Positions 31,272 to 60,617 of a stretch of DNA of 64,000 bases are shown here, piece after piece (within the stretch, counting starts at the first letter, position 1; every line of letters starts with the position of its first letter). A program made the position numbers and the translations under genes. Location of the stretch: the NCBI RefSeq assembly GCF_004010195.1, contig NC_057746.1:27538374-27602373 (forward strand), given 5' to 3'. Under the pieces are notes generated by a model. That model did not search any database. It saw only the letters and a program-made list of their open reading frames with translations, and was not told where the DNA came from. This DNA is from Chiloscyllium plagiosum (lineage: Eukaryota).

Positions 31272-31816
31272 TTAAAGGTTTCTGATTTGATTGATTGTTA
31301 GAGGATCCGAGTTTTTCCTGTCATCGTTAGAACCAGGGCTGAAGTAAGGATACATTTTGCCAGAAAATGAGTCAGTGAAAGTAAACAGGGTGGCCATGTT
31401 GGCTGCATTGTAGAAAGACAGCTGTCCACCTTCGTAGTCCAGGTACACCCCGACCTTCTTGGGCTTCGCATTTATGGATATACGTGTGGGATTGGCTGTG
31501 GAAGCCCAGTACTCACTGCCATTTTTCATCCCAAAAATCCAATATCCTGCATCTTGTGCCGACCTCGACCCCCGTTTTCGGAAGGTATCTTTAACTACGC
31601 CTAAATCCCACGCTGTTTTGTTTCCCACGTTCACCTCCCAGTAGTGTCGCCCTGACGTGAATCCGACGGATCCCAGGACACTAAGCTCGCGATCAACACT
31701 TTCCGCAGGTTCCGTGACAGCCCGCGCTTTTTCCATAAGTTTGACACTGGCCCGGTCCTCGGAGAGAACCAGCTGGGGATGCGCTGTGCTCGGATCCAGA
31801 GTCAGGGCAGCAGGTG
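31272..31816 (-). CDS. TRIM-B exon 6 (PRY-SPRY/B30.2)
   Basis: TCTCAG|CACCT; encodes [40 protein letters not shown]; TAA stop. Confidence 0.92.
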
Positions 31817-34800
31817 CTGAGAGAAAATGAAAGAAAATAGCTCGTCAACGATTTTGTAAAGAAGCGTGTTACCGTGCATTGAGGAAAAAAACCCAGTAAT
31901 TTCTGGAAGAACCCAGCAGGGAATCTAATTTTACACAGGACACACTCTTGACTGTCCGAAATTACCTGATACTCATCGGGAGGGTAGTTGCGCGGGTAAA
32001 CTATTTAAATTGTCCTTTTAAATAAAGTTTTGAAATTGTGGCAATTCTAAATTTATTGATGTGAATGCGTTGGAGGTTGGGGTCGACGGTATTGGCAGTG
32101 GGGCGGCTGTCGTGCACTATACTGGAGAGGCTCAGGCGAGTAATCTGGTCACGTGGGTTGAAATCCATCACTGCAGCTGGCGGAGGTTGATTTCGACCAC
32201 AGCAAGTCTGAAACTAGGACACTTATCGCACAGTAGTAGTGTCCCTACTGCTGAGCCAGGACCATCGGGTTCAAAATCCACTTGCTCCAAAGGTCTGTAA
32301 TCTCATCTAAGAACACGCTGATTACATTTTTTAAAAAAACTATGGAATTAAAAATTAGTCTTAATAATGGCGACTATGATGGCTGACATCCATTGATTTA
32401 AAAAATAGCAGCTGCTTTTCTTTAGAATAGGGAAACTGCCGTCCTTGCTCGGGTTTGATCTACCTATGATACCGGACACACAGTTATGTAGTTTAATGTT
32501 AACTGTCCACTGAAATGGTCTGATAGGTCTCTGAGTTTAAGGGAATTGGGGATAGAAACAGTTGTTGCCCTTTCCAGGCATGCACATGTAAAAATGAAAA
32601 TAAATGTAAAAATTGGTCGTGGGCAGTAGCTCTGCATTCAACACAATGAGAAAGAAAGTCGGGTTGAGCCTAAAGTCTTATAGCTGTTATTTTCAAAGGC
32701 ATTCCCTTCAAGTCCTTCAAGACCTTCAAGATTCCTTTCAAGTCTTGAGCACCCCAAGCACTACAACAGTCGAACAAGTTTGGTTCATGTGTAAGGCCAA
32801 TAAGTAATGGAGCAAAACTCCGTGAGCGGGGAAGCAGACAGACTGATATTCCAATTTCTAACCTCTACAGAACTCATGGTATATTCAATGACATAGCGGT
32901 CAACGTCACAGATTTTGGGACCAGATCTAAACTGAATACATCCAAGACGAGTTGGACTCGCTATGTTTCTATAGGTAACTGAAAAGGGCCGATAGTACCG
33001 AGGATGGAAGCTTGGCTTCTTTTCCCTTGAAATATTAACCTGCGGTGGCTTTTACCTTCAGCGGTGACGCACATATTCGTTTCAGTTGGCGGGAGACTAG
33101 AAGCCATTCTTAGGGATTGACACTACTACCGTGCTTCCTATACTGTTCCCATGTCGAACGTGCGTTCGTGTGCAACATGGCTTCTCAGGGTGAACCAAGC
33201 ATCTGAAAGTCCAATAGCTGTGCTTGGTAGCTCCGCGTAAAGGGAGTGAAATCTCCGAACCTGAGCGAGTCTCGATATTTTCTGTCCAACTGGAGGGGAT
33301 ATCCCTGCGCTTTCTGGTTTCACTGATATTAAACAAAAAGTTTCTCTCCCATGCTTTACCAACTGCTCCATACTGATATCCACTGACAGAGTCGCATGCT
33401 CCGTCCACTCGTCATGGAAATGGCACCAAACTTCAAGGTACAAAACAGGACTGCCATTTTCAGGCGGGAATCTGGTTCCTAACTGATTCGGGTCAAGTCT
33501 TAATCTTAGGAAATATGGCGCCTTCTGGAACGGACAAGAAATAGGGAAGCAATTATAAACACATTTCCCACCAGGCTTGGACGCTTACAATATTCCTTGT
33601 CGATTCCACAAGGCGCCAGTGGATATGTCACGCCCGTTCAAGGTTTCATCTGAAAAATAAAATTCGGCCACTTCGACACCATCTTTAGTCCCAAGCTGGT
33701 AAGTCTTTAATAATAGGTCTCTGAGAGAAAGTTAACAATTATTATTCAAATAATGTAACGCACGTTTCTGATTCTCAGATCCTCTTTACTGGCTATTGTG
33801 GTAAAAGCCGTTTTGATTGGTGTCAGGAAGCAGGCAACAACAGGTTGGCCTCTTCATTCAGCCATTTACTGTGCAGGAAGATTCAACATGTTAGGGATGT
33901 GCAAAAAGCAAGTGTAGAATGGTCTGACTAAACAGCAAAGGTGTTTATATAATAAATTGATATAATAATTGTTTGCATTTACAGAAGTTCTTAAATCGGG
34001 GTGACAGAAATAGATTAATTCAAGTGAAAACGGTTACGGACTTGACAGCGACCATTTGAGTATCGCTCAATTCACTGATCAGTCAAACGTTAAAATTATC
34101 CTTTAGATACTGGACAGCACGTTTTCTGATGACCAGCAATCCTGCTTTTTGTAGATGCTAATCTAATCAGTTTCCTTTTCGCACGCCCAAGATATAATGT
34201 ACGAACGTCATCGGTGGTGCAAAAACAAATTCTTGGCGTTACAGTACTTTGTTTGCGCGACTACTCATGTAATTAAACAGGTTTGTGTCCAGTTCTTCTT
34301 CAGACGCAGGGCAAAACGGACAAGAGCAAGTCAGCAAACTGTTTTGCATTCTTGTTTCCCATTAACCAACACTTCACCGCAAGCATAGATGCCAAATTTT
34401 GTATCAGGGATAAACCTCGGAATATAACAATGCCTGAGGAGGTAAAAGAGTTCAGGGGTTCACGGGAAGGCCGGCAAAATGGCAAGAATGCGGTAGATTC
34501 AAATTTAACCCAAAAAGGGGCTGGTGATTTGTTTTTGAAGGTAGCATAAGATGTCATAGAAACGGAATTGTCAAAGATTAAGAGGGAGTGTGGCCAGAGC
34601 AAAGCCCAGAAATGCAGGTACAAATGTCTTTAAAAACGGGAGGGTAATCCTTTTAACAGCTTGGCTTTTAAAACAGAAATATGGGGCACAAGTGTGCTCA
34701 ACCTCGGAAAATCCCTGGTTTGGCCGCAGTTGGTATTTTACGTCCAATTCTGGACAGCACGTTATGAGAAAGATGCCAAGGCCTTGGAAGGGTTTGATAG

Positions 34801-37800
34801 TTGCATTGCAAGAGTGACAGTCAGAGGGGTGATCAGCCATACAAAGAGACCAACGCTGTTTGGTTGCTTTCGTTAAGACAGAGACGGTTAGTTTGGAGAG
34901 AATTAGAAAGTGTACTCAAATCGTAAAAGGGCCTTCCCGTGAACCCCTGAATGAAAAACAAATAAAGAGAGAACTTTAATATTTGTAGAAGGTTTAATAA
35001 CCAGCTTACACAAGTTCTAATCCAATAACAAAAACACCTGAGGAAAGGAGAGATATTTGTTTTAAATCAATATATATTTCAGCGATGGAAACAGAGTCTA
35101 TGTTGTCTTTCAAAAACAAATTGTGTCAAACTTGAAGGGAAAACCCATGCATACTGACAAAGGCATCTTGAAATTGAGTTCATTAATCTTTCAGCAGTTC
35201 GACCCTGTTAAGATAGTCCGAATTTGCTGTGCCATTGCATTGGTCTGTTATGTTCCAATTTTTGCAAGAAATTGAAGCAGAGATATTTATTTTGCATCAA
35301 CTAGCTAGTTATTCCCCAAGTGAGGAAAAACTTGTAGATTGCATTCCATTGTGTTTTCTGTTTCCAAAAACCTTAAGGCTGTTATACTTTAATCTTGGAC
35401 TCTAGATCTCCATTTGTTTTCCCTTTGTGCTATGCTCTTCTACTTACTGTGTGTCTTTGCATGTCGGTCCTTTATATGCCTGTTTTAAGTTAAATATACA
35501 GGTTTCAAGAAGTCATGTTCAATTTCCATTGCCTCGTGTATTTGAATTTACTGCACTCACTGATCGTTTTATTTTTTTGGCAACAAAATGCCAGCTTACC
35601 GGGGTTAATAACGTCCATTATATCTTTCCACACTTTGTACTGGATAGGTCCTTTGAATGACCCCAGAGGAAGTTTGCCTTCTGTGACCGTATTCAGATAA
35701 CTCCCTTCGCTAATAATGTAAAAAGAAAAGGTTAGGTACTGAAAATATGAAGTAAAATTTGGAACTGTTGTTCATAAGTCCACGAATTGAATAGAATGCG
35801 ATGCATACCTCTTCCCTTTATCTGGATCCTCCTGAAAGTAAACAAACGACAGATGACAGTGATGAGCCATGCAAAACCTTACCTCTGCCTTTCATACTTA
35901 CAGTCCCAAATAGCTTTAAGGAATCACTTCTCCACATTTGAAATAAATTTTGCAAATGTCTAAGCAGCTAGACTGAGAGTAGGCTTGATGCATGTACTCG
36001 AATTAACGAGGGAGCTGGGCCGTAGAGCACGTGGTGTAAGTGAAATTGTCAATAACTCACCAGCCCAGTTAATAAACTCCCAAGGGATAGAAACGTGTTC
36101 ATGAAAACAAAATGTTAAGGACAAATATTCCAATTCGAACGCTCTAGAATAGTTGCTTTTGTTATTCATGGACAAGCGGGTATTGGATTCTTCAGTTTCT
36201 TAATTTAACAGATGCCAGAATTTCAGCTTTATTGGAGTGACAAAGATAAACCCAACATCGATGAGTTAATCGGCCATCCCCTCGGACAAACAGTCGTGAC
36301 TTCAATGCTATGGCCAGAAATCTCCTCTGACCCACATGTCTTACACAGATAGAGTTCGTTGATTTCCTTGTAAATTTGCTTTAAAAATTTTCAAAGACTG
36401 ACAAGGGGGAGCAAATATAGTCACTAAGTCGCACAACTGAATCTGGGGTGGAGAGGAGCCCGGGCGGGATGTGGGGGAGAGGGGGCGCGGAGTTGGGGAG
36501 GAGCGGAAACAGAGCTAGAATGTGAGAATAGAGCAATGGAGTTGTTTCTACATTCCTCCATCTGTATTCAAGCTCAGAATCGGATGGATTCCCTCTTCTT
36601 TTGTGGCAAACTATTGTTATTCTAAAACCCGCTATTCAGCTGAGCGGCGAAAATTAAGAGCCACACATCGAGAATATCATACTTGAGTTATTGTTTTCGA
36701 TCTGATATCTTAAATTCAATGGCAGCAATGGAGAAATGCAGTGACCGGAGCAAAGGGATATTTCTGGGTCTTTTCAAGCTCTCTGTTGACTTTAAACCTG
36801 AGTTATTCTTTAAGTCAGAGAACGCCCTGGGGAAAGATACCACAACGTCATGAAAGCTATGATAGATCTTCAAAGACTGCGTTTGAGGGTTGAGTGAATT
36901 TGAATTATATTGATCTTACCACTGGGAGTATTTTCAAAGGTGGAGAAAGGACCTCTTAAAGCAATTTGGGACTCTAAGTGTGAAAGGCATAGATAAGGAT
37001 TTTAAACGAACAGAATTGAACTGAGAGATGCAGCCAGAATTATAGTATGTCAGGAGAAAGCCATTCTCGAACATTCCGGCTAGAATTCAGTGTGAACATC
37101 GGAGAAATTGCCCAAATGGCTAAGCAGCTAGACGGGGAGTCGGTTTGACGCATGTACTCAAATTCACTAGGGAGCGGAGCAGAGCAGATTGAGCGACATT
37201 GTCTCCATTCATGCAAGGATGGAAAATGTGACGGAACAGATTTAAAGGAATTGGTAAAAAAAAGTAAAAGCGACATGTGGGGAAAAAAAAACTTTGCAGA
37301 CAGGGAGTGATACGATTTGGAATTCACCACCTGAGACGATGGTGGAGGCAGCTTCAATAGAGGCATGGTAAAATAGTTGTCTCACAAGGAAAGGAATTGG
37401 ACAACATCACTAACTGAAAGGCAAACGCCAAAAGCCGGTGCAGCAGCGATGAGCCGAATTGTCTCTTACGCTGGAACAATTCCGTGATTCTGTGACATAT
37501 CTCCCAAGCCCCCATTTCAACTTCCGCCAATTTCTTTTAGCATATAATTTCCAATAGACCTGAACTGGAACTACTGTATTCTGTTCCATAGTTGCAAACA
37601 TTGAGCACTCTTAACGAGTCAGAAAAATCCCGTGAAAGGAATTAAAGAAATAATAATCTCAAATATTGAAAGCCTTTACATGTTGTTCGTTAACAACGTC
37701 ACCCTGACTTCCACCAGAGTTCCCCTTAACCATCTGGGACACCCTGACAATTCACATTGACTTGGCTAGCACCCGTAAGGATTCTTACCTTGAGCAAGGA

Positions 37801-38739
37801 AAAGGCATCTTGTTGATTTAATTGTGACTGGACACTCGATAGCTTCTCATCTGTTTCATTCAGATGCTCCTGAATGTCCCGAAGATTGGACTCCATTTTC
37901 TTTAAGATGTCCTCTTCTTGGTCCCCCAGCTCTTTGGCAAGAGCCCGCTCTTTTTCTTCCAAGACCGTGCGCAGTTTGGTAAATTCTGACGAGATGTGCT
38001 TCTGCAGAATGTTGGACTGTTCCTGCGTCAAACAAAGAAGAGGCAACCATGCCCTGTGATTCTGGAGTGAACACAACAGAACCCCACCCGAGCAATTCCA
38101 CAGGGTAACAATGTTACCTGGATTTCCGAGATACTTTGCTGCTGCTTCAGTAAGACATTTTGGATGGAAGTTTTCTTCTGGTTCAGCGCCTGGAGGTTCG
38201 CTCTCATTTTCTCCTGCAGCAGAAAGACGGGGAGGAAGGGACTCGTGAAATTGCACATAATGAACAAATCATCGAATTTAGAACTAAACCATCAACCTTT
38301 CCTCCCTTACCTTGTAAATCTCGACCGCCTCATTTATCAGCATAAAGTTGTGTGATTTATGGCTCCGTCCATCTCTCCTGTCCAGACACATCACACAGAT
38401 CAATTTCTTGTCAGTTTCACAAAACAGCTTCAGTTCTTCCTGATGCTCGTCACAGAAGGGGTTGAAAACTTTGCTGGTCTCCACTGTCTGCTTAATGTTC
38501 AGGCTCCGAATTTTGTTGGACAGGACTCCCAAAGCTCGGTTGGCTTTCAGGTTTTTTTCACGGAACACCTCCCCGCACTCTGGACAGAAGGCTTTTTTCT
38601 CTTTCTCCCAACACTGTAAGATACACTGACGGCAGAAATCGTGGCCGCATTCCAGCATCACTGGATCGACAAAGATATCGAGGCAAATGGGGCAATTCAG
38701 TTCATCTCCTAAGCTTAGACTTGATGATCCGGAAGCCAT
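31272..38739 (-). CDS. TRIM-B: RING-B-box2-coiled coil-PRY/SPRY E3 ligase (paralog of TRIM-A), 6 coding exons, 478 aa
   Basis: Minus-strand exons 38739-38311, 38213-38118, 38022-37789, 35831-35809, 35709-35600 and 31816-31272 have GT-AG introns and join in frame (1437 nt). Start codon in GCCATGG context. Confidence 0.92.
32090..32590 (+). mobile_element. Decayed, nested tRNA-derived SINE(s)
   Basis: Two B-box-like heads (GGGTTGAAATCC, GGGTTCAAAATCC) and a LINE-like 3' tail. Confidence 0.5.
34520..35250 (+). mobile_element. Old CR1 fragment in TRIM-B intron 5
   Basis: LVWPQLVFYVQFW..DAKALEG motif (a degenerate LVRPQLEYCVQFW). Confidence 0.65.
35600..35709 (-). CDS. TRIM-B exon 5 (GPIQYKVWK)
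   Basis: TATTAG|CGAA...CCCG|GTAAGC; homologous to TRIM-A exon 5. Confidence 0.87.
35809..35831 (-). CDS. TRIM-B exon 4 (23 nt)
   Basis: TTTCAG|GAG...GAG|GTATGC. Confidence 0.85.
36720..37495 (+). mobile_element. Old CR1 fragment in TRIM-B intron 3
   Basis: Degenerate ORF2 C-terminus and a GAGCCGAATTGTCTC 3' motif. Confidence 0.5.
37789..38022 (-). CDS. TRIM-B exon 3 (234 nt)
   Basis: ACGCAG|GAA...AAG|GTAAGA; encodes HISSEFTKLRTVLEEKE. Confidence 0.9.
38118..38213 (-). CDS. TRIM-B exon 2 (96 nt)
   Basis: CTGCAG|GAG...CAG|GTAACA; encodes EKMRANLQALNQKK. Confidence 0.88.
38311..38739 (-). CDS. TRIM-B exon 1 (RING + B-box2)
   Basis: MASGSSSLSLGDELNCPIC..CGHDFCRQC..CPEC..; donor AAG|GTAAGG. 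Confidence 0.92.
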
Positions 38740-43599: not shown

Positions 43600-44022
43600 A
43601 TGACCTCTAAGTACCCCAGGAAGAGCTTGACAGTTGACCGGGACTGCCCTGTTTGCAATAAAATGGTTACGGATGGGGTGGTCCTGGAGTGCGGACATAC
43701 CGCCTGCGTCGACTGCTTTGCGTCCAACAGTCAAAGGGAAGGGCGTATTTTCTGCTCGAAATGCTGGACGACTGTTGAGCAAAGAAAGCCGCAGTCCAGC
43801 CACCCACTGGAAGATCTGGTTGTGAGAGGCGTGGATCCGAAAGAAGAGAAGAAAGGAAAAAAGGGACAGCACCCGTTTTGCCAGGAGCATCAGGAAGAGG
43901 TGAAGTTGTTCTGTGAAACGGAACGGAAACTAATCTGCGTGAACTGTCTCGATAGGAGGGATGAAAATAGCCATACGTCCCATAATTTCATGCTGGTGAA
44001 CGAAGCTATTGACATGTACAAG
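43600..44022 (+). CDS. TRIM-C exon 1 (divergent RING + B-box2)
   Basis: CPVC..CGHTACVDC..CSKC; CQEH..CETE..CVNC..HTSH; donor AAG|GTAAGC. Confidence 0.88.
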
Positions 44023-46021
44023 GTAAGCACTTTGAGTCGCATTACTAACAGAAATTTCCCCTGTCTTTCCTCCTTTAACTATGTCTTCATGTCGATTTCA
44101 TTTCCTCAGGAAAAAATCAACACAATTATATTTTCTCTGAAGCAGAAGAAAACCTCTTTTCAAGATTTTGAACTTAAGCAACAGGAAACCATTTCTGAAA
44201 TTAAGGTAAAAGTTAAACTGTAATACCTGTACCGGTGGTGTATTGGACACTCCATGTGTCCACACCTGAACTCCTCCTACGCGCTATGTGGCCATCAATG
44301 TCCTGGTGACCTCGGATAGTTTCTGCTCGTCCCTTAACAAATCAGTCTTCTCTTTACAGGAGCAGTCGAACAAGTTGCAGGCCCTCATCTTCACTGAATT
44401 TTCCAAATTGCGGAGCCTGCTGGACGAGAAAGAGCGCATCTTGGTCAAAGAATTAAACGAGGAAAAGGACGACATTTTAGGCAGAATGGAGACAAACCTA
44501 AGAGAGATCCAAGGCAACTCGCAGGACACTCAGCAAAAGGTGTCAGACATCGAGATGCAATTGAATACGGATGACGGAATTACTTTACTCATGGTAAGAT
44601 CGCTAATTGGGTCAAATGTGCTCTCACTGAATACACGCAGTTGTCTAAAAGTAGGTTCCCTTGTTGCTGGTCTTCACTATGTTTTCAGTCCCAGTGCATG
44701 CACTGTTCATGCTATGGTTCCTGCTCCAAACCTTCTGCTACCTTCATTACTGGCTTCAGAACTCACTACCATCAGGGCAAGGTGTGCGTTGTTTTCCCTC
44801 TTTTACTAAGAAAATGGGCAATGAGGCAAACTTGGAATACATAAAGCAAATTCAGCACTGCTTTGGAATCAATTTGATTGGTGGAAAGAGGCACTGACAT
44901 CAGAGTAATTCAAAGGCAATATAATGTAAATGGTGGAACTTTGGAAAAGAAAAACAAACTGCTGGAAATGCTCAGCAGATCTGGTAGCATGCTTGCAGCA
45001 AGAGAGCGAGACAGACAGATAGAAGAAAATAGAATTTAAGTTTCCAAATGCAACAGTAATTCTGCAACTGATACACGAAGATGGGACAAGGAAAGTAATA
45101 TATGGTATGTGATATGGCGGATGGCGGGTGGTGGGAATAAGAGAGAAAGGTTTGTGGTGCAAGAGTGGTGATGACAGCAGTGAAGATGCCAAAGATCTGT
45201 CTCGTGGGCAGTATACCTGCCAGCCCAATGCAACTTAAGGGTAATAAAAGAGAAATGAGAAAAAAAGCAAACACAAAACCAGAGGCAAACATGGGGGCAG
45301 AGGTACGATCTAAACTTGATGAACTTATCATTGTGTTACAGCCTATTTTCCCATTCCTCTTTCATTTCTTCATTGAGTAAAATCCAAGCCAATTTAGTCT
45401 GGCCTCACAATGTGCAGTTAATCTTACAGTTGAACATTATATCACCCTAAAGATGCACATAATACGAACTGTATTAAGAGATTAATTGGTCTATTCCTGA
45501 TTTATGTTCTTATGTTTACATTTTGATGTGGTACTTTCAACGTCTTTACTATTCTTCTTTTTGCTTGTACACTTTTCTATTATTTTACAGTTTGATTACT
45601 TCCTAAACACATTCCTGTTTCTTGCTGACCCTATTCTTGCTTGCACAAATTTCTGTCGCAGACATCCATTGACACATCTGTGATAACAATTGCCATCTTA
45701 CCACCAACTTGTGTCTTGTTTATTCTGCTTGTGCATTGCCATCGGGCTGTTGTGTGCTAACATTTCTGTTTTTGTCTGTTTCAGGAGAATATGTCCGTGG
45801 ACCAGAGGTATGACATGACCTCACCCCTTCCCCAAAATAACATTATGATTTTGCATGTTGAAATGTTTGTTTTATATTAGAATGTTAAATATTTTGCATT
45901 CCTAGTAATAATGAAGAAGACTACCAGCCAAAAATAACAGAAGGCAGTCTGACGTTGGGAGCATTTAAAGGACCGACCCAATATCGAGTGTGGAAACAAG
46001 TAATAGACATGCTTAACCCCG
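43600..46021 (+). CDS. TRIM-C: RING-B-box2-coiled coil TRIM paralog, exons 1-5; terminal PRY-SPRY exon not found in window
   Basis: Exons 43600-44022, 44110-44205, 44360-44593, 45785-45807 and 45906-46021 have GT-AG introns and join in frame with no stops. No SPRY-like ORF in 46022-64000. Confidence 0.88.
44110..44205 (+). CDS. TRIM-C exon 2 (96 nt)
   Basis: CCTCAG|GAA...AAG|GTAAAA. Confidence 0.86.
44360..44593 (+). CDS. TRIM-C exon 3 (234 nt)
   Basis: TTACAG|GAG...ATG|GTAAGA; encodes EFSKLRSLLDEKE..METNLREIQ. Confidence 0.88.
45785..45807 (+). CDS. TRIM-C exon 4 (23 nt)
   Basis: TTTCAG|GAG...GAG|GTATGA. Confidence 0.83.
45906..46021 (+). CDS. TRIM-C exon 5 (GPTQYRVWK)
   Basis: TCCTAG|TAAT...CCCG|GTATGG; homologous to exon 5 of both paralogs. 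Confidence 0.86.
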
Positions 46022-46064
46022 GTATGGAGGTTATATGTTCTATGTCTTAGCTTTCAATATCCTC

Positions 46065-46070
46065 AATAAA
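46065..46070 (+). promoter_or_regulatory. Candidate intronic polyadenylation signal of TRIM-C
   Basis: AATAAA begins 15 nt after the in-frame TAG (46048-46050) reached by reading through the exon-5 donor. Confidence 0.35.
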
Positions 46071-46184
46071 TATGTATATGCTCAGAAAACCAGGTCGGAG
46101 GATAAAAATTTAAATATTATTCAGAACCACATTAAAGAAGAGTAGCATGTATTTGGTGAAACTCATTGTTTGTAACACAACCGG

Positions 46185-47190
46185 AATCATAGAATCATTA
46201 ATACAGAAGAGACCTTATGTCCATGGAGGAGGTACCACCAAAGGTATGCTACCACCTGCATTAGTCCCACTTTCTAGCACTGAGCCCATACCCTTAAATA
46301 TTATCACATTTCAAGTATTCGTCCAAGAGCTTTTTAAATGTTGTGAACTTCCCCGCCCGAAATAACCTGCCCGGCAATGCATTCCAGATTCCTTCAACGC
46401 TCTGGGTGAAAAACAAACCTTTCCTCAATTTCCTTCTAAAGCTACTGGCCTTCGGTTTAAAATTATGCCACTTGCTATTGAACTTTCAACTAAAGGGAAC
46501 AACTGCTTTCTATTCACCTTACTACACCCCCCATAAACTTCGACATCTTTATGAACCTCTTCCCTTCAACTTTCTGTGAACCAGAGGAAAGAATTGGAGC
46601 TTATCCAGTTTTTCTTTATAGATTAAATTTCCTTCCCAGGCAACATCCTGGTATATCTCCTTCATATCTCCACCAGTACAATTACATCTTTCCTATAGTG
46701 TAGTGCTCAGAACTACACACAGTACTCCTGCTGTGGCCTAAGTATAATTCTGTACACCTCCAATACCACCTCCCTGATCTCAAAGTCTATGCCGTGACTG
46801 ATAAAGGCAAGTACCCCGTATTTATTTTTAACTACCCTATCAACCTGGGATCCGTGGACAAGTATCTAGAGATTCCTCTGTTCCTCCGAGCTTCATAGCG
46901 TCTTGGTCCTTTTTGAGCATTTGCTTACCTTGCTCTTTCTGCCAAAATGTATCACCTCTCATTTTCCATGACTAAGTTCCAACTGCCAGCAATGTGCCCA
47001 TCTGACGAAAATATTTATGTGCTCTTGTAACCTACCAGCTTCCTCCTCACTGTGAACCACCCAACCAATCTTTGTATTATCTGCAAACTCACTTATCGTC
47101 GGTTCCATTCATGCATCCCATATTCTCATTTACTTTGCTTATATATCTCAAACAATAAAGGACACAGCACTGATCCCCGTGGAATGTCAC
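46185..47190 (-). mobile_element. CR1 LINE 3' fragment
   Basis: ATCATAGAATCAT tail; reverse-complement RT motifs (IPRGSVLCPLLF, LQIIQ-like, EYCV.F). Confidence 0.78.
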
Positions 47191-47509
47191 TGCATGTCAT
47201 TTTAATACTCAAAATTATAATTAAAAATCTATCAGTTTTATTAATCCATGGATAGGAAAGATTAATCCATTCTTCAAATCTGTCGTTGTGGGCGAGGAAG
47301 CGAAACAAAAAGTGTCACATTTTCGAATGGTAGGAAGAAGCTTTAAGCACGAAATATCTGTATCTGTAATTGAAGGAATGATCATAAAAATGTGCGCTTA
47401 AACTGGAGAATGCGGGGCAAAAGTGAAAATATTTGCCAACAGAATCATGTTAAAACACTCAATACTAGTAGCATTTTGTTTCCAAAATGTTTCCAAAATG
47501 CTACTAGTA

Positions 47510-48670
47510 TTTATTAAGGTAAATATTCTGACTCCAGATGCTCAGGAGAAGTATAACTGGTCGTAGCAATCACATACTTCCAGTTAAACTAAAAAGAGAT
47601 CAGTACCCAATGTAGTTGGGGCAATACAGCACCATAGATGGATGATTGAGTAGGTAGTAGCAACAGCATATTGGGTCACCTTCAGGTTGAGGAACCAACT
47701 AGTGTAATGCCACCAAGGTCAGTGTTGGGATCTTAAATATTTACAATTTATATTAATACCTTTTTTAAGGGGTCAAACTTTCTGCTGACACATGCATAAA
47801 TACAAAAAGAAAAGCAAATTGTGAAGAAACAAATAGTTGCCAAATGGATATCGATTGGTTCAGTGACTGGGCAAACAAAACTTGGTCGATAGAATTTTAT
47901 TCTCTTTGGTGAGATCATAAAAGCCAAATATTATCTAAATGAAGGCAAACTGCAAATATGTGGTACTGAAGGATCTGGGTGTCCTTGTGCGTGGATAAGA
48001 AAGTGTTAGAATGCTGGTATATCAAACATTTAGAAGACAAATGGACTGTCAACCTTTATTGCAAACTGAATGGATTATAAACGTAGGTAAACCTTACTAC
48101 GAAGTATAGAGGATTGGTGAGATCCCAGTTAGGGTATTGTGTACCAGTTTGATCTCCTTTCTTAAAGAGCGATCCATTTGCATTGGAGGCAGTTTAGAGA
48201 AGTTTCACTCAGCTAATTCTTGAGATAAAAGGGCTAGCTTATCTAAAGAATTATTCAGTTGGTTGGGCCTATACCTTTTGGAGTTCAGAAGGATGATAAG
48301 TGTTTTTAGTTGAATACGTCTGACTCTGAGGTGACTTGACATGTAAGATGCTGACAGACCTATCCTCCCAATGAGGAATCTCAAGGTAGCACAATTTGAA
48401 TGTAAGTGGTCGCCAGTAAGAGATGAAAATGAGGAGCATTTTTTAAAAATCTCAGAACGTTGAAATTTTTGAGTTCTTTTCTTCAGACATCAGTAAAGGC
48501 GGGACATTGAATGTTTTCAAGGATGCGGTAGACAGATCTACGATCTACAAATGAGTTAAGGATTTCTGGGTGCATTCAGAAAAATAGGCCGAATGCCAAT
48601 TCCTGATCAGCTGTAATGTCATTGAACGAGAAAGTGGACTCAATCGGACGAATGATCTTCCCCTGTTTTG
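47510..48670 (+). mobile_element. Old CR1 LINE fragment
   Basis: QGQCWDL/GSVLG-like and LVRSQLGYCV-like degenerate RT/ORF2 motifs. Confidence 0.65.
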
Positions 48671-49984
48671 TTATTGTGAAAGTAACTGCAGCTGCAGCTC
48701 AATTTAAAACGTGCAACAGATGAGAAATCTCACTTTCAAGTCAAATGCATTGAACCAACTGTTCCTGTACATGGTGTTTATACCAATAGAAAGAGGCGCC
48801 CTTGCCTTGTAACTGCAACGACGGCTACATGGTGTGTGCAATGTTTAAAATTAATTGCATCGGTCTGTAACAAGCTAATTCTTTTCTTTCATAGACTGTG
48901 CAAAGATGACGAAATGAAGCACTTTTGATTTGACTTGACCCCATTCTGACTTTGTAAAGCATAACAATGTCCTGAACACGATACGCTATCCAGATGGCCT
49001 TTCAGATGCAGTTGTCCATTACCACGCATTAAAGAACCATATAGAATTTTAGTCCCATCCTATCCATCCGTATGTAGTCTACACAAAATCACCCCGGAAT
49101 GCCTGTTCAAACCTTGCATGCTAACTTCAATAAAGAACGTGGGTGATATCCGCGCTTGCAATCTCGTTTTCATTTGTTTTATAGTAAAAGTATCAAATAG
49201 TAACCGAAAACTTTAGGATTTTGTGATTCGTCTCGTCGACGAATTCGTAAGAAATGTCAACGTGATGCACGACATCTCAATAGTTTGTACTATGGTGAAT
49301 ACTAGTTAAAAATGAGCTGTCAAATCATCTACAGTAATCAATTAAAGAACCAATTCTTAAAATGAAATTGAAAAATGAAAATTTGTCAAGTTAAATTAAC
49401 ATTTCGTGTTGGGAGGGGCTGGGGAAGTGAGAGACGGCGGCACCCACTGAACCCGTGACCTAATCCGCTTGGAAGGGCTAGGGCAGCAGATGGTTCGGAA
49501 CACTAACCTCAACAAGTTCCTCTCCAAGCCACACATAATCTTGACTTGGAAATGTATCTTCAGCATCAGTGGGTCAAAATCTTGGAACTCTTTTGCTAAC
49601 AGCATTCTAGATCTAAATGCATCCCAGGGATTCAACTGCCTTCTTCTGAAGTGGTGGGTCGCCGGTTTGGAGAGTTGTGTGACAGATGAATGACACCCTG
49701 CTGCCATGCTCCTTCAGTGGCATTAGGAATACATAAGTGCTGAAACTGGTACTGGTGGTGCCAGTCAACGAGATATTTTGCCTGGATGCTGTCAAGATCC
49801 TTGAATGCTGTTGGAGCCGAATTCCTCCATTCAAGTGGAAAGTATTCCATCAAAAGATGAACTTCTGTTTTGCAGGACTGGACAACAAATATTGACTTAG
49901 CCAGCAACGCCCACATGCCACGAATAAATAAAATAAGTTTTCCCGGAGTGTTTATTACTTTGATTCACATTTCGAAATATTTGC

Positions 49985-50815
49985 AAAGTGTGATGGAATA
50001 CACCACACTTACCTGGATGGATACAGCTTCAACGAATCTCAAAAAGCTTGACACCATCCAGAATAAAGCAGCTCTCTAGATTGGTACCACTTGCCACAGG
50101 CATCCACTCCCTGCACCACCGACACTCAGTAGCAGCAGTGTGTACTATCTACAAGATGCAATGCAGAAATTCACCAAACATTCTCAGACAGCACCTTCCA
50201 AACCCAGCACCATTACCATCTAGAAGGACAAGAGCAGCAGATACATGAGAACGTCACCATTTGCACGTTCCCCTCCAAATCATTCACCATCCTAACTTGG
50301 AACTATATCACCGTTCTTTCAATGTGGCTGTGTCAAAATCCTGGAAAACCCTCCCTAGGGACACTTTTGATCCAGCTGCATCATGTAGACTGCTGCATTT
50401 CAAGAAGGCAGTTCACCACCACCTTCTCAAAGGCAACTGTATAGGGTGCTAGGTGACTCAGTGGTTAGCACCATTGCCTATCAGCACCAAAGACCCGGGT
50501 TCGATTCCCGCCTTAGGTAACTGTTTGTGTGACGTTTGCCCATTGCAGTTTTCTCCCACAATATAAAGGTGTGCAGATTAGGTGAATTAGCCATACTAAA
50601 TTGCCCAAAGTATTCAGGAATGTGTAGGCGAGGTGCATTAGTCAGAGACAAATAACGGGTAGCGGAATTGGTCTGGGCGGGTTACGCTTCGGACGGTCAT
50701 TGTGGACTTGTTGGGTCAAAGGGCCCTGTTTCTACACTAGAGGGATTCTAATACCTAGGGACTGGCAATGCAATGTTGGGCAGCCAGCGGCGCCCAAGTC
50801 CCACAAGGAAATAAA
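49985..50815 (+). mobile_element. LINE 3' fragment (CR1/L2 superfamily) split by an HE1 SINE
   Basis: SVMEY..LTWMD..LKKLDTIQNKAA / HSLHHRHSVAAVCTIYKM; the 3' end resumes after 50752. Confidence 0.75.
50443..50752 (+). mobile_element. HE1-type SINE nested in a LINE
   Basis: GGTGACTCAGTGGTTAGC A-box, GGGTTCGATTCCC B-box, TGGACTTGTTGGG..CTGTTTCTACACT tail. Confidence 0.85.
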
Positions 50816-51624
50816 AGAACTGAAAGCATGTTTCAATATTTCAGCAACACTATGAGAGTCAGTCAGGTGTGTACACGCCTATCAACTGACATTGCTGTCG
50901 TTCAACAGTTGATGTGTTGATGCACATTTGCTCTCCTGCTGAAGCTCCTGTTAGGAAGATGGATAATGCAATTAAAGCGAGAATTTGAGTGAGATTTAGA
51001 TGCGAATTTTCAGTTGTGATTATATAATTGGAAAACACTCAGGGACAGCTTATGGCGAGTATCTCTGCCTCTAAAGCATGAGTTCTATAGTTGTGACTCA
51101 CCCCAAGACCCGAAGAATTTGCGCTAATCGCAAAATTAAAGCCAGCTGAGGGTCAAACCGCAAACCTTTTTAGCAAATGCCAATAACAGGCGGTGATGGG
51201 AATAGGAGGGAGATTTCTGCCATTGGAGCCTTCACTATCATTCTCCCGATTATACGTCGCATGTTGTCACAACAATTCGAATTCCCGGAGCAGACTGGGC
51301 TCATCTCTACCATATCTACTATTAAACGCCTCCCGCAATCATGCTTCCTTACCTCAGTCCACTCTTATTTCAAGCCACAGGACAGGGAGTCTCGGATATC
51401 AAATGACAGAGCACTTGATCGAATGATTCCACTGTTTTGCACTATCTTCTTGTCCATTAAGTAAATTACTGCGCGGTCTTCAGGTTAGGTTTGGTACGAA
51501 ATTTCTCACCCCTCTTTTCATAGAATCCCCGTGGAAGCAAATCCATCGAGTGGACACCGATTCGTGAAATAGTATCCCACTCATACCCACCACCCCCACC
51601 CTACTCTATGCCAGCAGCAGTTGC

Positions 51625-52112
51625 AAAGCATGAAAACAGAGCCTTCAGTCCAACTAATGCACTCCGGCCATTTCCCAAACTAAACTCGTCCCGCTTGCCT
51701 GCGTTTGGCCATCATCCCTCCAAACCTTTCCTGCTCATGTACTTAGCCAAATGTATCTTAAATGTTGTAATTGTACCTGCATCCATAACTTCCTCTGCCA
51801 ATTCATTCCACAGACAAACCATCCTCTGTGTAAAATAAAGTTACCCACCCCCGTGTTTGTTTCTCCTCTCATATTGAAAATATGCGCTGTAGCTTTGAAC
51901 TCCCCCACCCTAGTCCCTTGCTACTCACCCTATCCATGCCCCTCACGATTTTATAAATCTCTATAAGGTCACCCCTAATCACCTACGCTCCAGTTAAAAA
52001 AACATCCCAACCTATGCAGTCTATTTCTGTAACTCAAACCTCCATTCCTAGAAAAATCCTGATCAATTTTTTTCTGAACTTTCTCCAGTTTAATGATATC
52101 CTTCCTGTAGCA
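51625..52112 (-). mobile_element. CR1 LINE 3' fragment
   Basis: Reverse complement of CR1 ORF2 C-terminus and 3' UTR. Confidence 0.75.
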
Positions 52113-53489
52113 AATCTATCTTCCTTCTCAGTCTACCTGCATTGCAGTCTACTTGGGTTTCAGCATCGACAATGAATGGCTCTTTTTGAAATGTAAGGCT
52201 TGTGCTTTGTTTGTAGTGTCATCTTCAGTGCAGTTAGTGCAATTAAACCTGTTGGACTAAAACCTGGTGTTGCGTGATTTTTATCTTTAGTGCAATATCC
52301 ATTGAAAGACGTCAGGCCAAACCGTTCTCCTGTTGCCGAACTCTCTAAACAATCCAACAGAGCAGTCAGATATATTCCATCATCTAACTCCCCACTAATA
52401 CGGCGTTACTATGAATGTCTAGTTCCCAGATATTGTTAGACAGCAGCCAACCAACCGTGGGACTGCTGATTTCGCTCCATGTCTCGCCTAATGCAAATCC
52501 TTAGTTACGAGATTGAGGGCTGCTTAGGTAGGGCAAACTACATCCCCAACTGTTCAATCCGAGTGACACAACAAATTTACCCCATAGCCTACTCAGCATC
52601 CTACCAACATGGCAAAGGCTGAAACACCAGTGTAAACTCTATTGTCATTTCTTGGTGACTGTGACGTAGAAGGAGCGAAAGAATTCGGGAGCGATGAGCT
52701 GTGATAGCCGCTATCAATATCCAGAATCTGAAGTTCAGTGCAGTTAAATGCATTAAATCATGCTTACACAGTGGAAATTATTTAAGATGATTATGATTTC
52801 GTCAAAAGGGATTTTTTTAATCGGAGCAGTCGGGCAAAGATTCAATTCAAACACGATGATGTACCGCCACCTTAAGGCTGTTTCTCGACACTACAGCTAG
52901 CATGGAACGGGCATAGAGCCGGCACAGATACAACGACAGATTACTCGTAATCTCCTTTTGCGCTCGTTCCATCTTCTGATGCATGGTGGGGCAGGATTGG
53001 GTGGGGGCGTGTGGAGACGTGTTGGGGGCGTGTCTAGTGGCGCTCAGTGTGTGGTGACTCTTACAAATACAGTTCTGTACAGATGCAGGATGGTAGGCAT
53101 AGCGGTGAGGAATGAGGTCAATTGCTCCGCCCCCCCCCCCCCCCCCACTCCCCCGACTGATTTGGTGCAGCCGCAGTCTAGCAGTTGTGTCCTTTAGGAC
53201 TTTACCAGCTTGGCCAGACAAGACGCTGCGGGGCTACTCAGTGGGAATTAATGTTCCCATCCAAAGTACATTCTGTGCCCCTTGCCACTCTCAAATTGTG
53301 TTCAATATGAAGGAGTATTGATTCACAAACTGAAGTGGGTGGAGTGGACATCAGTGATAATCAACACAATGTTTCCCTTCTTTTGTTAGACCCTGATGTC
53401 ATAAGACTTCATAGGGATTGAGAGTCAAAGTCAATTCTCTGAAGCCAACTCCCTCTCAACTGTACATCCTGACAATACGATGCTGCAAG

Positions 53490-55591
53490 ACAGGATCTGA
53501 GGAGCATAAGTTGGGAGCATAGGCTGTCAGGGAAGGATGTCGTTGAAATTTTCAAGGAACAGATACGACGTGTCCTTGATATGTATGTACCTGTCAGGCA
53601 GGGAAGAGATTGTCGTGTTAGGGAACCTTGGTTGACGAGGGAGGTTGAGTGTCCTGTAAAGAGGAAGAAGGAGGCTTACATAAGGTTGAGGAAACAAGGT
53701 TCAGACAGAGCGTTGGAGGAATACAGGATAGCCAGGAGGGAGCTTAAGAAAGGGATTAGGAGAGCTAAGAGAGGGCATGAAAAATCCTTGGCGGGTAGGA
53801 TCAAGGATAACCCCAAGGCTTTTTATGCGTATGTGAGAAACATGAGAATGACGAGAACGAGTGTAGGTCCGATCAAGAACAGTAGTGGGAGACTGTGTAT
53901 TGAGTCGGAAGAGATAGGAGAGGTCTGAATGAGTACATTTCTTCAGTATTTATATATGAGAGGGACCGTATTGTTGAAGAGGAGAGTATGAATCGGACTG
54001 GTAAGCTAGAGGAGATACTTGTTAGGAAGGGAGATGTGTTGGGCATTTTGAAAAACTTGAGGATAGACAAGTCCCCCGCGCCTGATCGGATATATCCTAG
54101 GATTATGTGGGAAGCAAGAGAGGAAATTGCAGAGCCGTTGGCAATGATCTTTTCGTCTTCACTGTCTACAGCGGTGGTACCAGGGACTGGAGAGTGGCGA
54201 ATGTTGTCCCCCTATTCAAAAAAGGGAATAGGGATAACCCAGGGAATTACAGGCCAGTTAGTCTTACTTCGGTGGTAGGCAAAGTAGTGGAAAGGGTACT
54301 GAGGGATAGGATTTATGAGTATCTGGAAAGTCACTGCTTGATGAGGGACAGCCAGCACGGATTTGTGAGGGGTAGGTCTTGCCTTACAAGTCTTATTGAA
54401 TTCTTTGAGGAGGTGACCAAGCATGTGGATGGGGGTAGAGCAGTGGATGTAGCGTACATGGATTTTAGTAAGGCATTTGATAAGGTTCCAAATGGTAGGC
54501 TTATGTGGAAAGTCAGGAGGGATTGGATAGTGGGAAATTTGGCCAGTTGGATAGAGAACTGGCTAACAGGTCGAAGTCAGAGAGTGGTGGTAGATGGTAA
54601 ATATTCAGCCTGGAGCCCAGTTACAAGTTGAGTTCCGCAGTGATCGGTTCTGGGTCCTCTTCTGTTTGTAATTTTTATTAATGACTTAGATGAGGGAGAC
54701 AAAGGGTGGGTCAGTAAATTTGCAGACAATACGAAGATTGGTGGAGTTGTGGATAGCGAGGAGGGCAGATATCGGCTGCAAATGGACTTAGATATGATGC
54801 AGAGCTGGGCTGAGGAGTGGCAGATGGAGTTCAACACTGTCAAGTGTGAGGTTGTCCATTTTGGAAAGACAAATAAGAATGCGGAATACAAGGTTAATGG
54901 TAGGGTTCTTAGTCAGGTGGAGGAACAGAGGGATCTTGGGGTCTATGTACATAGATCTTTGAAGGTTGCCACTCAGGTGGATAGAGTTTGTAAGAAGGCC
55001 TATGGAGTATCATCGTTCATTAGCAGAGGGATTGAATTCAAGAGTCATGAAGTGATGTTGCAACTGTACAGGACCTTGGTTAGGCCACATTTGGAGTACT
55101 GTGTGCAGTTCTGGTCACCTCACTTTAGGCAAGATGTGAAATTTTTGGAGAGGGTGCAGAGGAGATTTACCTGGATGTTGCCTGGAATGGAGAATAGGTC
55201 GTACGAGGATAGGTTGAGTGTGCTAGGCCTTTTCTCATTGGAACGGCGAAGGATGAGGGGTGACTTGATAGAGGTTTATAAGATGATCAGGGGAATAGAT
55301 AGAGTAGACAGTCAGAGACGTTTTCCCTGGGTACAACAGTGTTACAAGGGGACATAAATTTAAGGTCAAGGGTGGAAGGTATAGGGGGGATCTCAGGGAC
55401 AGGTTCTTTACCCATAAGAGTGGTGGGGGCATGGAATGCGCTGCCTGTGGGAGTGGCAGAGTCAGAATCATTGGTGACCTTTAAGCAGCAATTGAATAGG
55501 TACATGGATAGGTGCTTAAGCTAGGACAAATGTTCGGCACAACATCGTGGGCCGAAGGGGCTGTTCTGTGCTGTATTGTTCTATGTTCTAA
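53490..55591 (+). mobile_element. 5'-truncated CR1 LINE (~2.1 kb) with broken ORF2 reverse transcriptase
   Basis: PGNYRPVSLTSVVGK, SQHGFVRGRSCLT, YMDFSKAFDKV, KFADN and LVRPHLEYCVQFWSP motifs with frameshifts and stops; TTCTATG tail. Confidence 0.95.
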
Positions 55592-57839
55592 TACTTGTAT
55601 TGCAAGTGGGAAAGAACATCATCAGGAATGTGATGGTGTTGCCTGGGCCATGGTGCATGAGATACGATTCTGTAAGCATGACAATGTCAATCGTTTGCTT
55701 GAGAAAATTTTCACGATTTTGGCACTGGCTACAGATGTTGGTAAGGAGTATTGTGCAGGAACCACAGGACTGAGTTTGTTATTGCCAGGATCGATGACCA
55801 GGAGGCTCATCCAGGTGAAATACATATTTTTGGAGCTGTCTTAGTGATTTCATACAACTGAAAGGTGTGTGGAGCACTTTAAGATGGCAATTAAGAGTCA
55901 GCCATATTGCGGTAGGTCTGGAGTCACATATGGTTCAGTTTACCTTATCTTAAAGGATAATAGTGAACCAAACAAGGTTTTCGAAGAATCTACAATGATT
56001 TTCAGTGTAATTATTAGATTTTCAATTCGAGATTGTTTTGAATTCCAATTCCACTGTTTGTTATGGACGGAGTTGAATCCTCAACATGGGTCTCTGGATC
56101 ACTAATCTAGCGATCACTACATCATCACCTCCCACTATCTAACATGATCCCGAGGGGTCTTGACATGTTGGATATGTAGAGTGAGTTTCCTCTTTTAGAA
56201 GATTCTGGAACTAGGGGTCTCTGTTTAAGTGATGAATTGCACTCATAAAACGAAACCGTTGGGACTTTTTTTGTCTCAGAGAGTCTGAACGTTAGTCCGT
56301 TGGCAGGTATTGAAAGCAGCCATCCGTCATATGCATAAGACATGTTCTTGATGGGGAAAAAAAAATGGAAGGTTTCCTGCGGTTGACAGGAATGTAGAGT
56401 AATCACGTCGTCTACATGTGATCTCGTTTCAGAAAATCAAGGCCAATCGCGCACGACTTTCCTGTGAAATCACTCAATGTATGGAATTAATAAAAAGAAC
56501 AATGCTGGAGATCTGATTTTTTTTAAATCCCAGGAATTTCTAGTTGAACTTAGCAGGTTAGGAAATTAAGTGAGAAGAAAACAAAGCTAGCATTTCGGGT
56601 CTGCTGTTAGTTCATCAAAATCTTTCCAGCCTGCAGATCTGTCAAACCTGCTGAGTTTCACCAACAATGTCTGTTTTTTGTTAGGGATATAAGGAAGCTG
56701 GATTTCTTACTGAGAGAAGTTCTAACTGTAAAACAGCTTCTTGACTTTATTCCACTGCTATGGCATTAAACATTTGGGAAACTAATACCCAATAAACTTA
56801 AAAATCATTAATAATTTCTGCAGTCGGAGCAATAAAATGATTTTAAAAATCACGAATCCCAGGTAGACCGGTGGAGAAGGAAGTCAACTTAAAATTCCGG
56901 CTGTGCACACGGCACCTAGACTAAGAGGCCGTTAGATCGACAAAGAAAGCAACGAGAACAGAAGTTCAATTGGCGACAGTGTTTTGCAAGATTAAATGAG
57001 CTGTAAAGTGCAGGAACCCGGGTATGTTCCTGTCTGTAATATTTCTCTACAGGCGCAAAGTGCCGCTACATCACGGTGTTAGAGATGAATCAACTCAACC
57101 CCAGTTATTTCTCGCAAATGGGCATTACATTGTTGAATTTTTTCCTCATTAGATAGTGGAGATTGGATCTTTAAATTTATCCATGGTCAATTTAAATATA
57201 TTTTTGAAAGTATGATTGGGGCGACAACCACATCAACAATGACTATTGAATTTTGAAGGATGCTCGAATGGACCTATGGCACTTATACCTCGCTCTTATG
57301 TTTTACAGAAACTCTTTTGAAACTCCAATTATATATATAGATTGGAGAGGTTAGGAATGTTCTCCTTGCAGAAAAATGAGAGGATTTGACAGTTAGTCAA
57401 AACCATGAGACAGAATGGATAGGGATAAATGCTTTTACTGAGGGGACGACTAAACATCAAAGGACATAGATTTCAGGTAATCGGCAAAACAAAATCACGA
57501 GCGACATGAAGAAAATCCTTTCCATGCTGCTAGTGCTGGGAATTAAAATGCACTACCTGAGATTTTACTGCAAACAGATTCATTTGAGGCAACAGGGAAT
57601 CGCAATAATATTTGAAAGGAAATGCATGCAGTGCTTCACTGAAAGGCGGTTGATTGGCACTTAGAAATCTGTTCCACCAGAAAGCCAGCTGGGCACGATG
57701 ACAAAATCCCCTATTTCTGTAATGTAACAATTTTATGATTCGATAAAATTACAATTTTATGATAATTCATTAAAAGTTTTGACAGCCTCCAGCACAACTA
57801 GTTACTATGTCATCAACAATTCGGGGACACATCTCATGC

Positions 57840-58360
57840 CCACGTGAATATATCCTTAACCGCCCATCCACCACCACATCCAATCAAATCAAGGGTACAT
57901 TGCAGTCCTTCAACAACCTGTCACTCCCAGTTTCATGCTTCTCCTTTCTGTAATTCCACGTCTATTCTCAACCTCATCCTCTCCTCTGTGTATACCTTTC
58001 AGCCTTCCCCAAACTCTCATCTATTTCTTCCTCTTCCTGCTCACAATTCCTTATCCTCTTGCTTTTATTCTCTTTTCCTCCTTGTCCAACATCGAAGTGG
58101 ATGTCTTTCCCATTCCAAAGCACTCTGTGATACTGTACCCCTTCCTAATTCCCATTGACTTCTTAGCACTCATCCCCATTCTGCCTCGCCTATGCTTCAA
58201 ATTTTCTGTCTCCTCTTCACCCTCATCCATTTCCCCACCTTGCATTACTTAACCTGCTCAGGTCCATCTCCTCTCCTCCACCTCCAGATAACTAACAGCC
58301 CTCATACTCTAATCCTATCCTCCACAGGCGCACTTCTTTTCCTTATCCATTCCTTCATTC
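57840..58360. repeat. Pyrimidine-rich low-complexity tract
   Basis: Strong C/T bias on the + strand; continues beyond the CR1 insert to about 58980. Confidence 0.6.
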
Positions 58361-58867
58361 ATAGTCATAGAGTCATAGAAATTTACAGCACGGAAGCTGA
58401 TCCTTCAGTCCAACACATCCACGCCGACCAGATATCCTAACCTAATCTAGTCCCATTTGCGAGCAATTGGCCCATATCCTTCTAAATCTTTGCTATTCAT
58501 ATACACATCCAGATACTTTTAAATGCTGCAATTGTATCAGCATCCACCACTTTCTTTGGCAGCTCATTCTGTACATGCACTACCCTCAGTGTGAAAAAGT
58601 TGCCCCTTAGGTCCCTTTAATGTCTTTCTCCTGTCAGCCTAAACCGGTGCCCTCTAGTTCTGGACTCCCCCACCTCAGGGAAAAGAGCTTGTCTACTTAT
58701 CCTATCCATACCCTTCATGCTTTTATAAACCTCTCTAATGTCACCCCTCAGTCTCCGATGCTCCAGGGAAAACAGCCCCAGCCTATTCAATCTCTCCCTA
58801 TAGCTCAAATCCTCCAAACCCGCCAACTCCTGACCCCTGAAGTCTTTTCTGAACCCTTTCAAGTTTC
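58360..58867 (-). mobile_element. CR1 LINE 3' fragment (same subfamily as 1927-2511)
   Basis: LEDLSYRERLNRLGLFSLEHRRLRGD on the minus strand; (ATAGTC)n tail. Confidence 0.9.
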
Positions 58868-60470: not shown

Positions 60471-60617
60471 TGGCCATTGCACTCTATTCTTGTATAACGT
60501 ATCTTGAATTAACTAAGTTTGCAACTGTAGATACCACAAATGTCCATGCTTGTTGGCGTAGCCCTTCCAGACAAAACACTGATAATTGCCTGTTTCAATG
60601 AAATTTTTTGCAGGGCT

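Follow-up and report, generated by a model that had tools for sequence, protein, structure and literature searches.

In the window (the whole 64,000-nt stretch of Chiloscyllium plagiosum DNA analyzed here), TRIM-C appears to encode a TRIM protein that has neither a PRY-SPRY domain nor a CaaX box and that would end in a short last exon, exon 6, at position 48895; on balance, we lean toward the explanation that this protein is a damper of its SPRY-bearing neighbors. The first-pass annotation had instead read through the exon-5 donor into intron 5 and proposed a SPRY-less isoform made by intronic polyadenylation, in which a C-terminal CaaX box supplied a lipid anchor. Its statements about the sequence, the absence of a SPRY exon, and the plausibility of the motif as a prenylation site all held up, whereas the other two elements of the proposal were not supported: the exon-5 donor is intact and a homologous tail exon lies at 48895, which argues against an origin by intronic polyadenylation, and the non-CaaX tails of the orthologues, together with the predicted spliced exon 6, argue against the anchor.

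TRIM-C lies on the forward strand. Exon 1 (43600 to 44022) encodes a B-box and a C3HC4 RING with a diverged surface and 8/8 zinc-ligand positions kept; exons 2 (44110 to 44205, 96 nt) and 3 (44360 to 44593, 234 nt) encode coiled coil and match those of the orthologues. They are followed by a 23-nt exon 4 (45785 to 45807) and by exon 5 (45906 to 46021, 116 nt), which covers the linker-2 region and ends in an intact phase-1 donor, CCG/GTATGG. Every junction among exons 1 to 5 is GT-AG, and 297 codons are open. Pfam places zf-C3HC4 at 16 to 55 and zf-B_box at 91 to 130 of TRIM-C, both above their cutoffs, and TRIM_CC at 166 to 269 with an E value of 1.7e-5, below its cutoff. The PDB matches are coiled coils of TRIM5, TRIM69, and TRIM72, and exon 5 aligns with the end of the coiled coil in the TRIM69 structure 4NQJ. 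The predicted protein thus has the RING, the B-box, and the coiled coil of a TRIM (RBCC) protein in their proper order and, as predicted, lacks the PRY-SPRY that would place it in class IV.

Read-through of the exon-5 donor (46022 to 46050) adds (G)MEVICSMS to the frame and meets a stop at 46048 to 46050, giving, as the first-pass annotation stated, 306 amino acids ending in NP-GMEVICSMS. An AATAAA lies behind this stop, at 46065 to 46070, where it had been placed, 44 nt into intron 5. The corresponding read-throughs of the paralogues, GKEVFLHP-stop in TRIM-A and one ending in LNMTS-stop in TRIM-B, are likewise confirmed. Contigs of the public runs X1 and X3 cross the TRIM-C region unspliced, and both are identical to the window around 48895. 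The X3 contig that spans the CSMS motif (45646 to 46445) differs from the window by a single letter, at 46372, so that the motif is no assembly error, with the proviso that one of the runs may be the source of the assembly itself. A joint in X3 between 45789 and 49512 was ruled out as a splice junction by its TA..CA ends and its 21-nt side. Of two single-cell poly(A) RNA runs from one sample, sampled to about 2% and 6%, X5 yielded 3 reads, which fell on a repeat near 47149, and X6 yielded 0, so that TRIM-C itself received none.

Very likely, exon 6 at 48895 is the last exon actually used, as judged from its sequence context and from the tails of the orthologues. The predicted acceptor (48875 to 48894) has a CTAAT branch-point-like motif, a pyrimidine tract, and TAG, and the predicted coding part (48895 to 48917) reads (D)CAKMTK-stop and is homologous to the orthologue tails. 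Splicing of exon 5 to this site, across a GT-AG intron of 2,873 nt, would give 304 amino acids ending in CAKMTK, with no CaaX. When the downstream AGs were scored as acceptors against the orthologue tails of four genera, 48895 scored 13.25 and ranked first of 1,227; it also ranked first of the 55 acceptor-like AGs, the next of which scored -1.75. Because the filter for acceptor-like context rejects two of the six true acceptors on which it was tried, the rank without filtering is the more trustworthy of the two. Across the background, 2 of 8,110 AGs reach 13.25, including an acceptor-like one that lies upstream of TRIM-C; a background site upstream of TRIM-C, at 42400, outscores 48895. The CSMS read-through tail scores -10.75 against the same orthologue tails. 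Candidates at 57423 and 50389 were rejected for want of acceptor-like context. The idea that exon 6 is a decayed SPRY exon was also rejected: its DNA scores were 42.5 and 42.0, values that 14% and 29% of the 300 shuffles attained, respectively, and the SPRY exons of TRIM-A and TRIM-B score 398 against each other.

Eleven TRIM-C orthologue records from eight species were gathered from protein searches and cluster lookups, and seven of them extend through exon 5. Of these seven, six records from five species finish in a shared tail of the form x-C-xxxx-K-xxxx, which is not a CaaX: GCAAFNKGTTS in Heptranchias, GCAAPKKKPTS in Pristiophorus (two records, isoforms), DCTLLKKGNTS in both Scyliorhinus canicula and S. 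torazame, and NCRPPTKGYHV in Leucoraja. Tails that start with D or N are likely to be spliced, since by the genetic code read-through of a phase-1 GT donor must give Gly. A Cys at tail position 2 and a Lys five residues on are invariant in every tail, in the sharks, the skate, and the window; a role of this Cys in S-acylation or in a disulfide is a guess. The tails after linker-2 measure 7 to 11 residues in the six records and the predicted window exon, and the homology of exon 6 rests on 7 to 11 residues, the window tail being four residues shorter than the others. The exon-6 stop stands where most orthologues have Gly, and the codons behind it read S-T-F, resembling the orthologues' N/T-T-S; the tail has therefore likely been shortened in this lineage.

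The seventh record, the C. punctatum model GCC33691.1 (P0001), ends in CSMS and is identical to the window read-through at 305 of 306 residues. For Scyliorhinus torazame, the model GCB72599.1, whose accession is of the same type, breaks off after exon 4 although the complete tail is present in RefSeq, from which we infer that the 3' ends of such GCC and GCB models are unreliable; the CSMS-ending C. punctatum model is probably a read-through error. The other four records, none of which has a Cxxx end, leave TRIM-C before that point: exon 3 or 4 is the last one in three of them, and in the Amblyraja model (P0008) TRIM-C is fused to EHMT2. The congener model is thus the one record in 11 with a Cxxx end, and conservation of CSMS-stop, which the lipid anchor proposal called for, fails outside the genus in these protein records, with five of the six other species that reach this point ending in a different, non-CaaX tail. 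EHMT2 is a gene of the MHC class III region. A search did not find it in the window, and the Amblyraja fusion hints at a TRIM cluster adjoining EHMT2. In addition, the TRIM-C models of Leucoraja (P0012) and Amblyraja begin just before the B-box, without a RING, which could be a true loss or an artifact of short contigs.

The statement that no PRY-SPRY exon follows 46021 in the rest of the window was confirmed. A tblastn search that used the window's two SPRY exons as queries gave, among the matches listed, none better than an E value of 0.12 outside those two exons, and local DNA alignment of 46022 to 64000 to either exon scored within the range of 20 shuffles. A PRY or SPRY domain was found in 0 of the 11 orthologue records (precomputed Pfam lists, with seven rows rescanned), and a search for longer proteins showed no SPRY-bearing form of TRIM-C among its 10 matches listed. 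The orthologue records, from eight species, indicate that TRIM-C is SPRY-less and does not merely appear so because the window ends. TRIMs of RBCC plus a short tail, with no C-terminal domain, form a known class, and TRIM-C, with its orthologues built likewise, would fit it. By eye, fragmented LINE-like reverse transcriptase frames occupy 53473 to 55354 of the forward strand, with shorter related pieces elsewhere, including 46630 to 46772. Protein searches found no RefSeq TRIM-C for Chiloscyllium, Hemiscyllium, Stegostoma, or Rhincodon, and these same searches returned their TRIM-A and TRIM-B. No new TRIM-C candidate above 50% identity was found among the 150 matches listed, mostly unnamed, from a search of 1.84 billion representatives, and a metagenome scan for orthologous DNA gave 127 pattern matches, 0 of them confirmed.

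How often a motif such as CSMS arises by chance was gauged against a null drawn from both strands of the window, namely the 2,059 distinct stops that are met on reading through GT[AG] sites, the TRIM-C site included. Cxxx ends occurred at 75 of these stops, Cxx[SMAQC] ends at 16, and an AATAAA 5 to 60 nt behind the stop at 88; a CaaX-like end and AATAAA occurred jointly at 1 of the 2,059, and the product of the two frequencies comes to about one site in 3,000. Such a combination is uncommon, but since a vertebrate genome has on the order of 10^5 introns, tens of chance sites of this kind are expected per genome. ZAP-L, GBP1, and OAS1 p46 are antiviral proteins that are prenylated. CSMS is predicted to be prenylated, as CVIS and CTIS are; unlike the motifs of these three proteins, however, that of TRIM-C sits in intron 5, and orthologues from other genera do not have it. 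Three of four predictors call CSMS a substrate (supplementary file 7 of PMC9231725), which bears out its plausibility as a farnesyltransferase motif, yet this is not in itself a sign of selection, since each method classes some 17 to 42% of the 8,000 possible Cxxx motifs as substrates (PMC9231725, supplementary file 7). SVM-ESM-1b predicts that CSMS is not cleaved and that CVIS and CTIS are, and the accessible part of the main text of bioRxiv 2023.02.06.527295 holds no in vivo yeast value for CSMS. On prediction, the read-through form thus carries a CaaX box and the spliced form, ending in KMTK, does not. Because TRIM-C most likely ends in a spliced exon without a CaaX, the lipid tag that had been proposed probably reflects read-through of the intron by chance, and we have little doubt that CSMS and its AATAAA are a chance feature of intron 5. 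Among the matches listed in a literature search on TRIM and CaaX, judged by title and the start of the abstract, no prenylated TRIM was found.

The surroundings of the two poly(A) signals differ. The candidate signal in intron 5 has no upstream TGTA and is followed by A-rich sequence, while the AATAAA behind exon 6 (49129 to 49134), 211 nt after the stop, is preceded by a TGTA at 56 nt, is followed by a GU/U-rich region, and is the predicted main poly(A) signal. GT, TG, and TT steps downstream number 6 at 46065 and 16 at 49129, against a median of 11 for 110 sites; by context score, 49129 is in about the top 15% and 46065 in about the bottom 19% of these sites, neither value being significant alone. 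Scored by matches to U1 over nine positions, the exon-5 donor has 6 of 9, equal to three of the other four TRIM-C donors, and the matching donors of TRIM-A and TRIM-B have 7 of 9. U1 has been reported to protect transcripts against cleavage at proximal intronic poly(A) signals (PMC5499120). In S. torazame, one TRIM-B isoform listed by RefSeq (P0027) ends in NP-GN, as read-through at the equivalent donor would give.

Two full-length paralogues share the window with TRIM-C, both of the order RING-B-box-coiled coil-PRY-SPRY: TRIM-A (1477 to 16983, forward strand) and TRIM-B (31275 to 38739, reverse strand), the latter head to head with TRIM-C, with the two ATGs 4,861 nt apart. Over their SPRY exons, TRIM-A and TRIM-B match C. 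plagiosum proteins at 184/184 and 181/181 residues, respectively, and depart slightly from C. punctatum, which points to the white-spotted bamboo shark as the likely source. In a phylogenetic tree, seven TRIM-C rows, one from each of seven species, formed one clade (100/100) beside TRIM-A and TRIM-B; these were 7 of the 11 records, the remainder (P0004, P0008, P0015, and P0024) having been assigned by cluster or identity. The three paralogues make up a well-supported group of their own, apart from the six other shark TRIMs in the tree, and TRIM-C is about 46 to 49% identical to TRIM-A and TRIM-B.

The domains of the three proteins are conserved to different degrees. As means of six pairs among four sharks, with Hemiscyllium as the carpet shark row for TRIM-A, identities for TRIM-C, TRIM-A, and TRIM-B, respectively, are 45, 78, and 92% in the RING, 85, 93, and 95% in the B-box, 72, 78, and 87% in the coiled coil, and 74, 86, and 83% in linker-2. 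All eight RING zinc-ligand positions are kept in 6/6 shark TRIM-C rows. The Trp of the RING helix has a role in E2 binding; it is present in 2 of 6 TRIM-C rows versus 16 of 16 rows of TRIM-A and TRIM-B, and Chiloscyllium TRIM-C has lost both this Trp and the RING Pro. The residue after the last RING Cys varies in TRIM-C (W, K, G, S, K, and S) and is Gly in 16/16 rows of TRIM-A and TRIM-B and Arg in 6/6 outgroup shark TRIMs. A division into an inactive TRIM-C and active TRIM-A and TRIM-B is not established, since TRIM-C keeps its zinc ligands and TRIM-A and TRIM-B also are without the basic linchpin residue; given their Gly, the ligase activity of the whole trio may be atypical.

Some features of the paralogues stand apart from the question of the TRIM-C tail. 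The C terminus of TRIM-A (16969 to 16983, forward strand) is a conserved Cxxx, CHEE here and CHEE, CHDE, or CQEN in shark, ray, and skate orthologues; it is predicted not to be prenylated, with CHEE and CQEN called by 0/4 predictors and CHDE by 1/4. TRIM-A exon 2 (2586 to 2681, forward strand) is 96 nt long and open, with AG/GT ends and a weak pyrimidine tract, and it is skipped in three Chiloscyllium models (447 amino acids) and included in that of Hemiscyllium (479 amino acids). A Pristiophorus TRIM-C isoform (P0015) skips the equivalent 96-nt exon, and an isoform with a shortened coiled coil may thus be recurrent.

Going by these comparisons, selection seems to keep the parts of TRIM-C that serve assembly and to relax the catalytic part, with no target-binding domain present. 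The kept assembly parts, the relaxed RING, the missing SPRY, and the head-to-head position with TRIM-B together suggest a regulatory subunit. Under this proposal, exon 5 would be spliced to the short last exon, the resulting RING-B-box-coiled-coil protein would co-assemble with TRIM-A or TRIM-B, and within such heteromers it would dilute the target-binding activity of their SPRY domains and the ligase activity of their RINGs. A prediction of the TRIM-B/TRIM-C complex lends weak support to co-assembly: it scored 0.54 versus 0.00 for the best control, with a pLDDT of at least 74 and at least 80% of contacts agreeing between runs. In a benchmark, only 5 of 78 solved complexes and all four mismatches that passed scored in the range of this prediction; since mismatches score alike and TRIM dimers have already been solved, the prediction may reflect likeness only.

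Precedents for such a damper have been described in other TRIMs. TRIM5 gamma and delta, which like TRIM-C consist of a RING, a B-box, and a coiled coil without B30.2/PRY-SPRY, are reported to be dominant negative on the full-length form, presumably via coiled-coil heteromers (PMC1906832); these two forms arise by splicing from a gene that does have a SPRY, whereas TRIM-C, for which no SPRY exon was found, is a gene in its own right that sharks and skates have kept. A truncated TRIM5 allele is a further reported precedent (PMC3304089). TRIM51 and TRIM49, described as an inactive:active pair involving RING pseudoligases (PMC11992055), resemble TRIM-C and its neighbors in that a paralogue with a diverged RING sits beside a close relative, and the reported repression of TRIM49 by TRIM51, which binds through the coiled coil, is the mechanism proposed here for TRIM-C. 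TRIM49 and TRIM51 share 75% identity (PMC11992055), compared with the lower figures for TRIM-C given above, and TRIM-C has no SPRY. Judged by analogy with TRIM5 gamma and delta and with TRIM51 and TRIM49, regulation of TRIM-A and TRIM-B by TRIM-C is, in our estimate, an evenly balanced proposition. Cartilaginous fish have been reported to carry an expanded set of TRIM69-like genes (PMC7677710). The shark genes of that expansion, labeled TRIM69-like, "zinc-binding protein A33-like," or "nuclear factor 7-like," have family labels, exon sizes, and linker-2 in common with TRIM-C, whose linker-2 matches TRIM69 4NQJ with an E value of 1.9e-11; TRIM-A, TRIM-B, and TRIM-C differ from them in forming their own group, and TRIM-C in having no SPRY.

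Other explanations have to be weighed against the damper. TRIM-C might use exon 6 and lack a CaaX and yet act independently, as a homodimeric scaffold or an E3 ligase that finds its partners via the B-box, the coiled coil, or the Cys/Lys tail. The complete set of zinc-ligand positions in all six shark rows and the Cys and Lys that are invariant across sharks and a skate would suit such a protein, as would the antiviral activity of its own reported for SPRY-less TRIM5gamma (PMC6996557). The 45% identity of the shark RINGs, against 78% and 92% in the paralogues, and the two skate models that begin just before the B-box point the other way, and we consider an independent TRIM-C somewhat unlikely. 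In this lineage, alternatively, selection on TRIM-C may have relaxed or the gene may be almost silent, and neither tail would then matter much: the exon-6 stop comes four codons early, the RING Trp and Pro are lost in Chiloscyllium, and a RefSeq protein was not found for carpet sharks. This reading is at odds with 297 open codons between splice sites that are all GT-AG, with the conserved B-box and coiled coil, and with the 305/306 identity to the congener, and we regard it as improbable. That TRIM-C is an ordinary full-length TRIM with its PRY-SPRY exon beyond 64000 would be allowed by a window that stops 18 kb past exon 5; it is scarcely credible next to the 0 of 11 orthologue records with a SPRY, some on contigs of 21 to 229 Mb, and the 10 matches of the longer-protein search.

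The farnesylated form deserves the same scrutiny. In its original version, a regulated CSMS isoform would arise by intronic polyadenylation and be directed to membranes, at least in bamboo sharks. It can claim a combination of CaaX-like end and AATAAA seen at a single null site in 2,059, the same nine residues at the end of the C. punctatum model, an exon-5 donor one U1 match weaker than those of TRIM-A and TRIM-B (6 versus 7 of 9), and the TRIM-B isoform of S. torazame whose NP-GN end fits read-through at this donor. Against this, a CaaX is absent in five of six other species that reach the end of exon 5 and in three models that stop earlier, and a proper last exon is present at 48895. The signal at 46065 lacks auxiliary elements, and an intact 5' splice site, near which U1 is reported to suppress cleavage (PMC5499120), is 44 nt away; 17 to 42% of all Cxxx motifs are predicted substrates, and a match to a congener whose protein is 99.7% identical tells little about selection. 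We consider this version very improbable. An inducible second 3' end, in which polyadenylation at 46065 would yield a farnesylated CSMS isoform that draws TRIM-A or TRIM-B heteromers to membranes in the manner of an OAS1-p46-like switch, seems more doubtful still. The reading we retain is a SPRY-less TRIM-C that probably ends in exon 6.

With this, a tempting and probably false lead to a prenylated TRIM is removed, and the gene model is corrected to include a likely last exon at 48895. Searched by title and the start of the abstract, and with most subscription journals outside the scope, the literature on shark TRIMs gave no description of a SPRY-less TRIM-C. As judged from the orthologue sequences, the loss of the SPRY is real and old, a SPRY-less TRIM in a gene of its own being common to sharks and skates, whose split has been estimated at 306 Ma (95% CI, 252 to 387; PMC3692497). 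TRIM-C would have been kept in this form since that split, and the gene with which it stands head to head is a paralogue of full length. If TRIM-C is indeed a built-in damper, then the regulation of TRIMs by truncated partners would be very old and could be hard-wired as a gene rather than as a splice form.
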